From a virus, in the IMG/VR virus record IMGVR_UViG_3300021478_000015, positions 1 through 64,000 of that record: a stretch of DNA of 64,000 bases; one strand, given 5' to 3'. Below, piece by piece: positions 1,056 through 52,300 of this stretch. Within the stretch, counting starts at the first letter, position 1; every line of letters begins with the position of its first letter. The notes beneath the pieces were generated by a model, which worked only from the letters and a program-made list of their open reading frames with translations, was not told the DNA's origin and did no database searches. The position numbers and the translations under genes are program-made.

Positions 1056-1096
1056 ATCTAAGGCGACTTGCTAATCGAAACGGTATCTGCTAAAGT
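1056..1096 (+). promoter_or_regulatory. promoter with operator motif (class A, overlapping -35)
   Basis: ATCTAAG-GCGACT-TGCTAA 1056-1074; TTGCTA-17-TAAAGT. Confidence 0.75.
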
Positions 1097-1148
1097 GATG
1101 GCAGAGGGGATCAGACCCTCTCTACAAATCCACCACACAGGAGATCCC

Positions 1149-1499
1149 TTGCCGATCAACATCCACATCACCGATGGCTTGATAACCATCAAGGCTGAGG
1201 ACGGCACCGTCGTCAGCATCGACCGGGTGACCGGGGCGACCGTGCCCAAGCGGGCCAGCTACACCCCCAAGCCCATCAAGGCCACCCTGCACAACTCCTC
1301 TGTCAAGGTCTCGCCTCGCTGGACCCTCAAGGTGGGCGACACCGTCCTGGCCCAGCACAAGAAGGGCGGCCGCAAGTTCCGCACCACGGTGCGGGCCATC
1401 ACCACCGAGAACGACCAGACCTTCGTCCAGGTGGCCGACCCCCGTAACGGGGGCACCTACCTTCTGGCCCTCGACCGCATCGCCCGGACTCGATCATGA
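1149..1499 (+). CDS. hypothetical protein, possibly SH3-like beta C-terminus
   Basis: AGGAG SD before TTG 1149; strong GC3 codon bias. Confidence 0.7.
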   Translation: MPINIHITDGLITIKAEDGTVVSIDRVTGATVPKRASYTPKPIKATLHNSSVKVSPRWTLKVGDTVLAQHKKGGRKFRTTVRAITTENDQTFVQVADPRNGGTYLLALDRIARTRS

Positions 1500-1957
1500 G
1501 CCCCAAGCAATCCAGCCTCCCGGCCCTGGAGGCCAAGCTGGCCGCTCAGTTGGCCAAGGACGTGACCAAGCCGTCCCTGCGGATCGATGCCACCACCTAC
1601 CATCCCTCGGGCACCGCGGACGGGCTGGTCATCGCCATCGCCAGCCTGACCGGCGAGACCGACGAGGAGATCTTCGCCCGCCTGGCTCCCCCGCTGCCCG
1701 ATCGGCGGGGCTGGTACGGCCTGCCCTGCTTCAACGGGCTCAGCGCCGAGCAGCAGGTCCGGCTCATCTCCTGGGGCAACCTGCCCCTCGGCTACCAGCC
1801 GGAAGGACCCTGCCAGAACGGGGCTAACGTGGCCATCGAATCCGAGGTGGACGCCGCACCGGGACCGAGGTTTTACTGCTGGGATTGCGCCCTTGTCTAC
1901 GTCCAGGATCTGCGGGATGGAACCGATATTTTGCCTGAGTTGAAAAAGGAGGGTTAG
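1496..1957 (+). CDS. hypothetical protein
   Basis: ATGA overlap, codon bias. Confidence 0.7.
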   Translation: MSPKQSSLPALEAKLAAQLAKDVTKPSLRIDATTYHPSGTADGLVIAIASLTGETDEEIFARLAPPLPDRRGWYGLPCFNGLSAEQQVRLISWGNLPLGYQPEGPCQNGANVAIESEVDAAPGPRFYCWDCALVYVQDLRDGTDILPELKKEG

Positions 1958-1997
1958 CAACTAGCTTTGGATGACCGCGACCAGCTAAAGTGATCTG

Positions 1998-2116
1998 GGA
2001 ATGGCACCGCTGATGGGGTACCGCCCCTCGCCAGCGGACCGCCGGAGGGGGAGGCTGGTCCTCGGGAACCCGCCACCGGAGGATCCCTCCCTCTCCACCC
2101 AACCAGCAGTTTTTTT
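1998..2116 (+). promoter_or_regulatory. structured leader/attenuator or sRNA ending in T7 tract
   Basis: Two hairpins (~2007-2037 and 2044-2096), T-tract 2110-2116, -10-like TAAAGT 1986-1991. Confidence 0.4.
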
Positions 2117-2139
2117 GAACTAGCGAAAGGGCACAAACC

Positions 2140-2802
2140 ATGACGGCTTCCGAACCCTCTGTCAACGACCTCTCTCCGCTGACCAAGACCGAGACGGAGC
2201 CCATGCTCCTGCTCGACACCACCGGGTCCATGAGCTTCCCGGCCGCGGATGGCAGCAAGGTGGAGCGCCGTGAGGTGGTGCATGAGGCCATCGGGCGCAT
2301 CATCGAGGTGCTGGAGGCCAAGGACTCCCAGGAGGCCAAGGAGCAGGCGGCCGGGGAGGACAAGGGCGGCGTCATGACCGTCACCTTCGCCGGGGGCAGC
2401 GCCAAGAACCTGGACGACATCTCCACCCGCAATCTGGTGGAGAAGTGGAACTCCATCCAGTGGGGTGGCGGCACCCAGATCATGCCGGGCTGGAACCTGC
2501 TGGTGGACACCTACATGGAGGAGTTCGGGGATCAGCCCAAGACCGATCGGCCCGCCCTCATGGCCCTGGTCATCACCGATGGGGAGGCTGATGACGCGGC
2601 CGAGTTCGCCGCCACCATGGCCCAGGCCAAGGGCGGCACCTACGTGGCCATCGCCATCGTGGGCTACGGAGCGGAGCATGACTCGGCCCTGGCCAGCTTC
2701 CAGAACGTGGCCGCGGGCAACGACCACGTCCGGGTGCTGACCTTCGGGGGCGAGACCGACCCCAACGTCATCGCAGACGGCCTGGTGGCCATGATCGGGT
2801 AG
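2140..2802 (+). CDS. von Willebrand factor A (vWA) domain protein
   Basis: MIDAS-like LLLDTTGSM, GGT, VITDG. Confidence 0.85.
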   Translation: MTASEPSVNDLSPLTKTETEPMLLLDTTGSMSFPAADGSKVERREVVHEAIGRIIEVLEAKDSQEAKEQAAGEDKGGVMTVTFAGGSAKNLDDISTRNLVEKWNSIQWGGGTQIMPGWNLLVDTYMEEFGDQPKTDRPALMALVITDGEADDAAEFAATMAQAKGGTYVAIAIVGYGAEHDSALASFQNVAAGNDHVRVLTFGGETDPNVIADGLVAMIG

Positions 2803-2852
2803 CTTTCCCTGCAGGGAAGAGCCCCGGTCGCGCATGTAGACACTGGGGCTCG

Positions 2853-2929
2853 GCTGGAGGGGTCACTTGGCGACGGAAAAGGCCACGTACAGCGGGAGCC
2901 CCTGAGAGTTCGATCCTCCACCTCCAGCA
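2853..2929 (+). ncRNA. tRNA-like element, non-canonical
   Basis: 8-bp acceptor GCTGGAGG/CCTCCAGC plus A, D-like arm GTC-ACTTGGC-GAC, T-loop TTCGATC; no canonical anticodon arm. Confidence 0.5.
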
Positions 2930-50584: not shown

Positions 50585-50591
50585 GACTGGT

Positions 50592-50623
50592 ACATTAGCA
50601 GATTCGCTTAGAGAGGGCAAGTC
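50592..50623 (-). promoter_or_regulatory. promoter with operator motif (class B), leaderless
   Basis: TTGCCC-17-TAATGT; CTCTAAG-CGAATC-TGCTAA. Confidence 0.85.
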
Positions 50624-50783
50624 AGTCCACCACCAGGAGCCAGAGCAGGTAGCCGACCGTGGCCCAGAACGTCAGGCACAGGACCAGCAGGAGTAGCAGG
50701 AATCCGAGGTCGAGCAGGTACTGCCGCCGCCGGACGCGGCTGACGATGCGTTGTGCCTCCCGGACCGGAGTGCGCCGCCTCAC
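50622..50783 (-). CDS. small membrane protein (~53 aa)
   Basis: Basic N-terminus then long Leu-rich segment; read manually. Confidence 0.55.
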   Translation of the reverse strand: MRRRTPVREAQRIVSRVRRRQYLLDLGFLLLLLVLCLTFWATVGYLLWLLVVD

Positions 50784-50802
50784 CTGATCGAGCCTGGCAC
50801 AT

Positions 50803-51141
50803 TCAGGCGACCTTGACCTTTGCCTTTGTGCGCCTTCTCACTAGCAGGCTGCGATTGATCATCTCGGCTCGCATCTTCGGTCTCATCGGCTCACCGAAGC
50901 TGGAGATGGTGGTGTATTGCTCGGGATAGCGATAGTAGCGCTGGAATACCTTCATGTCGTTGCCGATGTAATCGAAGCGCTCGGTGGTGCAACGGGTGCA
51001 ACGAAGAGCCAGGCAAGCTTGGGCGGCTCGGAAGAGATCGCTGTTCACCTCGGCGGTGGGGTTGTCATCCCAGGAGTGTCCGATGGTTCGGCAGATGACA
51101 TAAGTATCCTGTAGATCCGAGATCTCCATACGGATTGCCAT
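50803..51141 (-). CDS. hypothetical Zn-binding protein
   Basis: CR..GHSW..CTRC. Confidence 0.75.
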   Translation of the reverse strand: MAIRMEISDLQDTYVICRTIGHSWDDNPTAEVNSDLFRAAQACLALRCTRCTTERFDYIGNDMKVFQRYYRYPEQYTTISSFGEPMRPKMRAEMINRSLLVRRRTKAKVKVA

Positions 51142-51416
51142 CAGCGTTCCATCCTTTCAGCTAGCCACATATGACCATCCTGATCCTCCAACACAATAAA
51201 GGGCAACACCTTGAACTTTGGCGCGGTCGGTTTCGGAGGGTTGAACACCTCCACCGCCTGGCTGTTGTTAGTCGGCCGTGGAGGCATGCCTTTCTTACGC
51301 AACCGGCCGGTCTTACCTCCCCAGATGCCGTGCGCTTTTCGCATGTGATCGCCCCAGAGATAGACAGAGGCATAGCTTTTGCCGCAGTGTGGGCACTTCT
51401 CTTTGACTCCGGCCAT
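51141..51416 (-). CDS. C2H2 zinc-finger protein
   Basis: CPHCGKSY..HMRKAH. Confidence 0.7.
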   Translation of the reverse strand: MAGVKEKCPHCGKSYASVYLWGDHMRKAHGIWGGKTGRLRKKGMPPRPTNNSQAVEVFNPPKPTAPKFKVLPFIVLEDQDGHMWLAERMER

Positions 51417-52228
51417 CACACCGGGCTTTCATCCACGATGGACAGGTCGCTGCGAACCTCGTCGCGCCACTCATCGATCTGATCGGAGGTGGGCTCATCG
51501 GGCTCGACCCGGCCACTGCCGTCGCAGGTGTCGCAGGCGATCTCCGCCTCGGAGTTCTCGGCCTCCTCGTCGTAGTCGGGGTTCTCGATCACGCCGGTCC
51601 CGCCGCACTCGGAGCACTCGTCTTCCTCGGGCTCGGGGAAGTCCGGGATGGTGGCGTTCTCGATCTCGTCCGCCCAGGAGTCCAGTTGCTCGGAGATGTC
51701 CCGAAGCTCCTGGGACTGCTCCGTCTCATGCTGGAAGCCGGACTCGATGTTGTCGGCCGACTCGCCCTTCTCCTGGGCGATCTCGCGCACTGCCTCGGCC
51801 GCCTCGTTGAGGGCTGTCTGGGCATCATCCTCGGATTCGGCCGAGTCGATGGCCTCGGAGAAGTTGTGGCTGACCTCGGCCAGGCGGGCGCTCAGGCTGG
51901 AGGAGTACTCCCAGACCTGCCAGGAGGGGCAGTTGGCGCAGCGGTACATGGTCCGGCCGCCGTAGGGGCCGGAGCGGGGGCTGATGTGCTTGTAGGGGCT
52001 GCCCACCGTGATCTCGACGCCGCAGGCATCGCACTTGCGATTGGGCAGAGGCTTGGTCTTGTCAGCTACCGTGACCGACAGGAACACCGGCCGACCGGTC
52101 TTGGTCTGCTTCTGCTGGCCGTTCTTACCCATGACCGGAGTCTGCTTCTGCTGACCCGTCTCAGGGTCGATGACAGGGACTTGCTCATACCGCTGTTGAG
52201 CGGCCTTGACGTGGGTGATGCGAGCCAT
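51416..52228 (-). CDS. acidic helical protein with zinc fingers
   Basis: AAGGAG SD; CSECGGTG/CDTCDGSG. Confidence 0.8.
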   Translation of the reverse strand: MARITHVKAAQQRYEQVPVIDPETGQQKQTPVMGKNGQQKQTKTGRPVFLSVTVADKTKPLPNRKCDACGVEITVGSPYKHISPRSGPYGGRTMYRCANCPSWQVWEYSSSLSARLAEVSHNFSEAIDSAESEDDAQTALNEAAEAVREIAQEKGESADNIESGFQHETEQSQELRDISEQLDSWADEIENATIPDFPEPEEDECSECGGTGVIENPDYDEEAENSEAEIACDTCDGSGRVEPDEPTSDQIDEWRDEVRSDLSIVDESPV

Positions 52229-52258
52229 GAAAAACTCCTTGTTGTGGTGGTTGTTCCC

Positions 52259-52300
52259 ACCCTACACGAAAAGGTGGTGTGTTGGCAAGTCGGCTTAGAG
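52259..52300 (-). promoter_or_regulatory. promoter with operator motif (class A)
   Basis: CTCTAAG-CCGACT-TGCCAA; TTGCCA-18-TAGGGT. Confidence 0.75.

Follow-up and report, generated by a model that had tools for sequence, protein, structure and literature searches.

A 19-bp putative operator embedded in several geometries in a family of sigma-A-type promoters of an uncultured actinophage

About 17 near-identical sigma-A-type promoters of a 157-kb uncultured actinophage form one family, or regulon, whose members carry the 19-bp element CTCTARG-N6-TG(N)(N)AA within or against their core promoter sequences. The genome in question, IMGVR_UViG_3300021478_000015 (hereafter G000), comprises 156,983 bp and is rated complete by CheckV; the window that we analysed is a stretch of 64,000 nucleotides corresponding to its bases 1-64000, and the contigs G002 and G005 join the end of the genome to its start. 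In class A promoters the element fills the spacer between the -35 and the -10 hexamers, whereas in class B promoters it is displaced upstream and overlaps the -35. From its sequence and placement, the element is very probably the recognition site of some trans-acting factor. More specifically, we propose that it is a putative operator of the repressor type, a reading to which we assign a probability of roughly 0.55.

A preliminary description of the window had listed nine copies of CTCTAAG-N6-TGCTAA, at positions 1056 and 2933 on the plus strand and at 41669, 42900, 43373, 44956, 49351, 50595 and 52282 on the minus strand, and all nine were recovered. Five of these sites are exact and four carry one mismatch, with a chance expectation of 0 to 0.4. 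The exact pattern occurred five times in the window and in none of 100 shuffles, while a search tolerating up to two mismatches gave 10 matches against a shuffle mean of 0.4 and a maximum of 3, the tenth match being a weak copy at 45312 on the minus strand. A regulon of nine turned out to be too small, as a pattern scan of the whole genome added seven further copies, six of class A (75524, 76844, 79405, 80375, 84121 and 87101) and one of class B (83129). The genome thus holds about 17 copies, every one of them co-oriented with the gene downstream. They are clustered at 40.6-52.2 kb (minus strand), at 75.5-87.5 kb (plus strand) and at 1-3 kb, and no copy was found inside the replication block at 9-40 kb (ThyX, DnaB, primase, Pol III alpha, RecA and RNR) or inside the virion block. 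The 5′ heptamer CTCTARG alone (the box) occurred 31 times in G000 against about 32 expected by our own estimate from base composition, and 17 of these 31 occurrences corresponded to the promoter copies. Since the heptamer is at chance level, free-standing, stoperator-like sites are not enriched in this genome, and every full motif sits in a promoter.

The promoter of each copy follows the sigma-A type (TTGNNN, 17-18 bp, TANNNT). Read in the sense of the gene, class A promoters conform to ggtGAC-T[TG]G[AC]NY-N-CTCTARG-N6-TGC-TAANGT-N7-ATG-ACCACCACC, in which the motif occupies the 17-bp spacer from about -29 to -11 and its TGCTAA is at the same time the extended -10. Class B promoters conform to CTCTARG-NNGAC-TTG[AC][CT]A-AT-(17-18 bp spacer)-TANNNT. 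There, the box lies 19 bp farther from the start site and the motif spans about -48 to -30, so that its 3′ half coincides with the -35 plus one base and TGNNAA serves as the -35; at the class B sites of the window (1056, 2933 and 52282) 5 nt separate the box from the -35 hexamer that follows it. The promoter context and the division of the nine sites into six and three hold as initially described, while several details had to be amended. The CTAA cores, given as 12 bp apart, measured 13 bp from start to start. The N6, thought to be variable in the upstream class, shows 17 variants among 33 spacer-filling sites and is constrained to NNGACT in the upstream class because it holds the GAC and the first T of the -35. 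The TGCTAA attributed to class B becomes TGACAA or TGATAA in related phages, that is, the -35 itself. The motif-bearing promoters escaped a generic scan for promoters and terminators. Genes were called with our own heuristic, based on open reading frames (ORFs) and on the GC content at third codon positions (GC3), which tends to over-extend 5′ ends; a K-mer enrichment test in intergenic regions was uninformative because the over-extended ORFs swallow the promoters.

The element was conserved among close relatives. DNA-pattern scans of IMG/VR provided four syntenic contigs with about 75% nucleotide identity (G001, G002, G004 and G005), which together with G000 yielded a set of 44 sites, 33 of class A and 11 of class B. 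The sigma-A features were evident throughout the set, with T[TG]G in 30 out of 33 class A sites, a T at position 6 of the -10 in all 33, and spacers of 17-18 bp among the 11 class B sites. The box, as CTCTAAG or CTCTAGG, was present in 39 out of 44 sites (30/33 in class A and 9/11 in class B). The variable parts were the upstream flanks, the 3-4 nt that follow the -35 and the N6; because the box is kept while flanks and spacer drift, it is under purifying selection and not merely inherited. The 3′ half of the element showed constraints that depend on what it overlaps. In class A, the -10 is preceded by the extension and reads TGC-TAA in 30 out of 33 sites, with A at position 3 in 32 of the 33, whereas the class B -10, which lies outside the motif, is a generic TANNNT (position 3 being A in four sites, G in four, C in two and T in one) with a TG extension in only 5 out of 11. 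The -35 hexamer, in turn, ends in A and is followed by a further A in 11 out of 11 class B sites, while it never ends in A in class A. These overlap-specific constraints indicate that TGNNAA is restricted beyond the needs of sigma-A, which supports a bipartite 19-mer that is read in two registers. Moreover, the promoter of the DinG-like helicase gene belongs to class B in G000 and to class A in G002 and G005, and the DUF7242-DUF7229 gene pair has a class B promoter in G001 and G005 that is decayed in G000.

Distant relatives, retrieved at the family level with a DinG alignment, carried the element in another orientation or a different element altogether. The complete genome G008 (151,490 bp) has about 60 proteins in common with G000 at 30-60% identity and a major capsid protein that is 83% identical. 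It contained six copies of CTCTAGG-GATTCC-TGTCAA or -TGTAAA, compared to none in the control, and this element matches the G000 site 44956 at 16 out of 19 bases. The G008 genes lie on the strand opposite to the element, and in gene sense the region reads TTGACA-GGAATCC-CTAGAGG-GTA-TAAGAT, corresponding to TTGACA-17-TAAGAT promoters. The element is thus inverted and spans about -36 to -18, its TGTCAA being the complement of the -35 and its box falling in the spacer at about -24 to -18. One of these promoters is followed by a leaderless ORF of 122 amino acids (aa) with a GC3 of 0.93. A further relative, G007, presented three copies of CTCTAAG-N6-TGGCAA. G011 (IMGVR_UViG_3300041409_000610; 155,347 bp with terminal repeats and 49 shared proteins) is more distant than G008 and had no copy of the 19-bp motif. 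Instead, more than 40 of its promoters read TTGACC-N4-CTACCC-N4-GGG-TAG(T/G)GT, in which a perfect dyad, CTACCC-N4-GGGTAG, overlaps the -10; because G011 places another element in the same scaffold, the embedded element is lineage-specific. Other DinG relatives had plain promoters of the form TTGACA-17-TAGACT-6-ATG. The claim that conservation in more than one register goes beyond promoter consensus is therefore strengthened by the close relatives, the class switch at DinG, the inversion in G008 and the replacement in G011. The dyad promoters of G011 look like a large operator-like regulon in their own right; examples lie at 87136-87170, 89238, 89710 and 114868, and the promoter is followed by a conserved leader ending in CCGCACCGGAGG.

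The occurrence of one sequence in changing positions and orientations, together with the palindrome of G011, argues against a contact surface for RNA polymerase; the element's behaviour is like that of a target recognised by a DNA-binding protein specific to the lineage. Since the element always overlaps a core promoter element, it would most likely be the operator of a repressor: these promoters are near consensus, their spacing is optimal and an element contacted by sigma is covered, so that occlusion, resulting in repression or shut-off, is the simplest reading. According to this model, a phage-encoded protein would bind the 19-mer as a monomer or in some other non-symmetrical manner, and the bound protein would exclude RNA polymerase in all three geometries, that is, over the extended -10, over the -35 or over the -35 and spacer. 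A single factor could in this way shut off or gate the whole promoter set together. The promoters drive non-structural units, for which we infer an early or host-takeover timing.

Several observations weigh against a repressor-type operator. The transcription start sites were deduced from sequence only. We found no promoter of this type in G000 that lacks the box, which can be separated from the promoter by its register alone, and the near-consensus promoters could be tuned or activated by the factor instead. The 44 sites do not amount to 44 independent observations, as orthologous sites of the four close relatives are partly non-independent, and the G007 copies occur in mixed or unclear orientations. 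In addition, G000 had no Cro/CI-type, HTH_3 or HTH_17 protein, no C1 homologue, no tyrosine or serine integrase and no ParB gene (only weak ParB modules inside a polyvalent protein), and no lysogeny context was seen. Given these absences, the phage is apparently virulent, and the factor would then regulate timing instead of serving as an immunity repressor.

An alternative explanation is that the element binds an activator or a sigma adaptor. Such a factor would be positioned alongside region 4 or region 3 of sigma and would either recruit the host RNA polymerase or redirect it, comparable to PafBC at its -26 element, to T4 MotA or to a MerR-type regulator acting on the spacer. The register is exact to the base, with 6 nt from box to TG in 44 out of 44 sites; the class A box lies at about -26, 9 nt upstream of the -10 hexamer, and the class B box is located where class I and class II activators bind. 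The class B -10 is also the weaker one, its TG extension being present in only 5 out of 11 sites, and the best candidate protein looks MerR-like by eye. In a variant of this explanation, the factor might repress class A and activate class B, as phi29 p4 does, producing an early-to-middle switch. However, the promoters already combine TTGACN with a spacer of the optimal length of 17 bp and with an extended -10, so that no activator is needed, and three positions together with both orientations are hard to reconcile with a stereospecific contact with the polymerase. PafBC-type promoters have no -35 and MerR-type spacers are 19-20 bp long, neither of which applies here. We consider this explanation rather unlikely. 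It would be improbable, too, that no dedicated factor exists and that CTCTAAG is just part of a copied, optimised promoter resembling the extended consensus of T4 early promoters, in which spacer and upstream sequences tune the strength for a host polymerase possibly modified by injected phage enzymes. Consistent with such a cassette, every strong leaderless promoter of G000 has the box and the conserved stretch runs from the GAC upstream of the -35 to the ACCACC past the ATG. Nevertheless, a cassette leaves unexplained why the same 19-mer lies 19 bp farther upstream in class B and inverted in G008, why -10 and -35 are constrained in a class-specific manner, and why this scaffold contains a palindrome in G011. 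Furthermore, the unrelated-looking contig G006 carries the TGCTAAAGT-N7-ATGACCACC module without any box.

A third explanation, in which the element imitates an operator of the host and is recognised by one of the host's own regulators, came from full-pattern scans of bacterial genomes and metagenomes. These gave about 55 matches, nearly all of them to one single-copy element in metagenome-assembled genomes (MAGs) of Actinomycetes/Streptosporangiaceae. This element, GACTGGCACTC-TCTAGGGTA-GAGTGCTAA, is CIRCE, the HrcA operator, according to its published consensus, and was the only host element that the scans returned. By eye, the phage site 41669 agrees with it at 24 out of 29 positions, but 18 of the matching bases were forced by the search pattern. 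The family consensus agrees with the CIRCE arms at only about 9 out of 18 positions, also by eye, and lacks both a GAG in the right arm and dyad symmetry; the CIRCE matches were therefore treated as a by-product of the search pattern. The -35 regions of the relatives (TGGACT) diverge from CIRCE, its arms are entirely absent from class B and from the G008 geometry, and the MAGs have 72-74% GC compared to 62% in the phage, all of which leaves mimicry highly improbable. The host CIRCE copies themselves (loci L135-L190, in MAGs and soil metagenome contigs) occur once per genome, with an unusually conserved spacer TCTAGGGTA.

The preliminary description had attributed the copies to one regulator. 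They do mark one promoter family, as shown above, while our search for the regulator identified none. Among about 120 proteins analysed with Pfam, the regulator matches were limited to WhiB, a marginal Sigma70_r4_2 and single C2H2 fingers below the threshold, and sequence searches of the PDB gave nothing in this hunt. The best lead is a DUF7229 protein of 194 aa (8564-9148, plus strand). It had been called MerR-like, and a MerR/excisionase-like helix, FTVSEAAKFFFRRSSHWIR, can indeed be recognised by eye, but Pfam gives DUF7229 only, just below the cut-off. The protein belongs to the DUF7242-DUF7229 pair, which is syntenic after DinG in all lineages, and its helix diverges: RSSHWIR in G000 and G008, which share the element, RTAFWIR in G009 and KSTNWLR in G011. 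This correlation between helix and element is confounded with overall divergence, so DUF7229 is a lead only. The ESM atlas gave weak leads only for this protein, and its AlphaFold model was too poor for a fold search (predicted local distance difference test, pLDDT, of 44.6).

Two other candidates fared worse. A 125-aa protein with a helix-turn-helix (HTH) like that of sigma-70 region 4 (28853-29230, plus strand) matched Sigma70_r4_2 marginally in Pfam, and a further search was supportive. Its HTH is almost identical in G011, whose embedded element is different, which makes it a poor candidate for the protein that binds the box; it is more likely a conserved, perhaps late, activator. The WhiB-like protein (52357-52629, plus strand; Pfam E = 4.6e-18) is an accessory gene at this locus; G001 and G004 have no WhiB gene at the syntenic position although the promoters are retained there. 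Within 52279-53036, WhiB is followed by a protein with a weak match to the Arr-like rifampin ADP-ribosyltransferase fold (E = 1.4e-5), which is likewise absent at that place in G001 and G004. A C2H2-like protein of 92 aa (51141-51419, minus strand) was dropped, being about 30% identical in G001 and G004, not found in G008 and sub-threshold in Pfam. Single fingers of the eukaryote-style form C-x2-C-x12-H-x4-H occur in this protein and at 35557-35757 (plus strand), 10211-11125 (plus strand) and G000 81935-82105 (plus strand), the best Pfam value being E = 3.3e-5, where the score of 24.7 bits falls short of the cut-off of 27. That the phage has its own RNA polymerase or sigma factor was also considered and rejected, as no DxDGD-type catalytic motif was seen in a plausible protein and no RNA polymerase family appeared among the proteins scanned with Pfam. 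As a long shot, we can imagine a position-dependent switch in which one small phage protein, perhaps the fast-evolving DUF7229, shuts the sites at the -10 and spacer and spares or activates those upstream of the -35, so that an early-to-middle programme would run on host sigma-A alone; element and reader would then co-evolve between lineages, from the asymmetric form of G000 and G008 to the dyad of G011.

Start codons (ATG or GTG) lie 5-9 nt past the -10 in 30 out of 33 class A sites, typically as an ATG at 7 nt, and the class A mRNAs are therefore predicted to be leaderless, as would be those of most promoters of the family. Leaderless genes open with M-T-T-T encoded by ACC ACC ACC, as seen at 42887, 44943, 49338 and 50582 in the window and at 75552, 79434, 83177, 84150 and 87131 in the rest of G000. 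ACCAC was found within 28 nt of the -10 in 29 out of 33 class A sites, compared to about 5% expected. The same sequence is present in untranslated leaders of class B units (52282; G001 42932; G004 13375) and in contig G006, which suggests a nucleic-acid signal rather than a protein motif; it is perhaps a CA-rich enhancer of leaderless translation. Outside the window, two class A promoters start leaderless mini-ORFs of 9 codons at G000 75552-75581 and 76875-76904 (locus L191), MTTKLSNPS* and MTTTHNQAC*, whose stops overlap the start of the next gene (ATGA and TAATG, respectively). This overlap suggests translational coupling from a leaderless start.

Within the window, the DinG-like, ArdC-like and topoisomerase-like genes lie directly downstream of copies and the HNH-helicase gene within the 49351 unit, in agreement with the initial assignment; many of the other genes downstream of motif promoters encode small proteins without assigned function. 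The class B promoter at 1056-1096 (plus strand) has a box ATCTAAG (1056-1062), a -35 TTGCTA (1068-1073) inside the 3′ half of the motif and, after a 17-bp spacer, a -10 TGC-TAAAGT (1091-1096); it precedes a leadered unit with an ORF in 1068-1499. The class B promoter of the DinG-like helicase (2933-2983, plus strand) has its box at 2933-2939, a -35 TTGCTA at 2945-2950 and a -10 TAGGGT at 2968-2973, and the helicase gene (2981-5014) starts at a leaderless ATG at 2981. The third class B promoter (52259-52300, minus strand) combines a box at 52294-52300, a -35 TTGCCA at 52283-52288, an 18-bp spacer and a -10 TAGGGT at 52259-52264. Its unit, divergent from WhiB, has a leader (ACCACCAC, AAGGAG) followed by a 270-aa gene (51416-52228) and the 92-aa C2H2-like gene; a search for related loci with the 270-aa protein gave no match.

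All class A promoters of the window are on the minus strand. That of the topoisomerase-like gene (40595-41635) occupies 41656-41697, with the motif at 41669-41687 and a short leader opening with ATAACCACCACC; tblastn with the protein found distant matches only, in scattered hosts. The promoter at 42887-42928 (motif 42900-42918) leads into a leaderless ATG at 42887-42889 of the ArdC-like gene (41831-42889), which encodes an ArdC N-terminal domain and a metallopeptidase domain. At 43360-43401, a promoter TTGACT-17-TAACGT (motif 43373-43391) drives a unit of about 415 nt, which had been described as a large non-coding RNA. This assignment was not confirmed: the unit has no Rfam match and its coding potential is ambiguous: no convincing ORF was found, and the GC3 of its frames is 0.58-0.69 compared to 0.8-0.9 in genes. 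In G001 and G004 the corresponding position is taken by a leaderless protein gene, and no orthologue of the unit is present there. The unit (43360-42947) opens with a Met-Ala-stop minigene. The promoter at 44943-44984 (motif 44956-44974) precedes the leaderless ATG of a 79-aa protein, that at 49338-49379 (motif 49351-49369) has a terminator-like hairpin upstream and drives a leaderless 83-aa gene, a 47-aa ORF and the HNH/ResIII helicase gene (47054-48949), and that at 50582-50623 (motif 50595-50613) precedes the leaderless ATG of a 103-aa protein.

The weak tenth copy (45299-45330, minus strand) reads CTATAAG-N6-TGATAA with two mismatches, has no GACTTG -35 and is followed 10 nt on by ATGACCACT. 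It is placed inside the first of a pair of long paralogous ORFs, of 468 and 289 aa, which share the pattern ...TIILIGG...TL(T/S)DGS... and belong to a low-GC stretch (53%; 44993-47145, minus strand), in frame with an internal ATG. Neither ORF had a Pfam match and the stretch had no Rfam match. Rfam and tRNA scans of the whole window, including the 43373 unit and this region, gave no match, nor did a megablast of 40-53 kb against INPHARED phages.

The promoters described here define a clean, testable regulon in soil actinophages of a large family known only from uncultured members, with about 17 promoters per genome in which the -35, the -10, the start codon and a 19-bp candidate operator are defined. 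Natural controls are at hand, namely three geometries of one element and a sister lineage with another element in the same scaffold. The promoters could also serve as compact, strong-looking leaderless cassettes for high-GC actinobacteria, and the operator, paired with its reader, might be developed into a switch.

Among known systems, the closest in mode is the C1 repressor of P1, whose 22 dispersed asymmetric operators of 17 bp (PMC8546580) compare with the 19 bp found here, one factor serving many operons. The annotated P1 record shows Oc1d filling the P1coi spacer, and Olpa and Oc1e abutting or overlapping a -35, which resembles classes A and B of G000; the likeness concerns the mode and not membership. 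The P1 operator, ATTGCTCTAATAAATTT, shares only CTCTAA with our motif (PMC8546580), and the presence of this hexamer in both consensus sequences is probably a coincidence. A search of G000 with P1 C1 (283 aa) gave no match, not even at E <= 10. P1 is temperate and resides in E. coli as a plasmid prophage, whereas G000 is an actinophage in which no integrase or partition gene was found.

In cluster A mycobacteriophages, the operator overlaps the -35 of the early promoter and the stoperators follow an asymmetric consensus of 13-14 bp, GGTGGMTGTCAAG. Phages with a repressor of the L5 gp71 type resemble G000 in being actinophages whose genomes each contain many copies of an asymmetric site, and their repressor is a monomer that reads this site through two DNA-binding domains (PMC9283540). 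However, their consensus differs from CTCTARG-N6-TGNNAA, their stoperators lie inside genes and operons, where they stop elongation, while all G000 copies are in promoters, and those phages are temperate. The G000 motif is therefore distinct from the cluster A stoperator, as the preliminary description had held. HTH_3, HTH_17 and tyrosine or serine integrases gave no match in G000, gp71 itself not being among the queries. Judged by the differing consensus sequences, the lack of a C1 homologue and the lack of intragenic stoperator-like sites, membership in either the P1 C1 or the cluster A family fails.

Cluster O actinophages also possess several near-consensus SigA-type promoters, in some of which the +1 coincides with the initial base of the start codon, and a separate 17-bp dyad repeat in 34 copies whose factor is not known (PMC4351075). 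The likeness lies in the strongly predicted, partly leaderless SigA-like promoter sets; their repeat is palindromic and outside the promoter spacer, whereas the element of G000 lacks symmetry and merges with either the -10 or the -35. The marbox of MarA, SoxS and Rob is an asymmetric bipartite site of about 20 bp that is read by a monomer in several positions and orientations relative to the -35, and is in this sense similar. Nevertheless, these proteins activate weak promoters, and no AraC-type protein was seen in G000, where none was searched for. Other systems are set apart by their architecture: the inverted repeat TTAGCACTC-N9-GAGTGCTAA of CIRCE/HrcA is not matched by the family, with only site 41669 coming close; the PafBC-type -26 element contrasts with the -35 found at 17 bp in nearly all sites here; and MerR-type proteins use a dyad in a spacer of 19-20 bp instead of an asymmetric element in one of 17 bp. 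These promoters reveal no new principle of regulation. P1 and the cluster A phages already offer examples of dispersed asymmetric operators, and the present case comes from a new, uncultured phage family. By analogy, the shut-off logic of these promoters most likely resembles that of the operators bound by P1 C1 and that of the cluster A repressor, a monomer with two domains, and its instructive point is an operator half-site that doubles as the -10 or as the -35, in three geometries.

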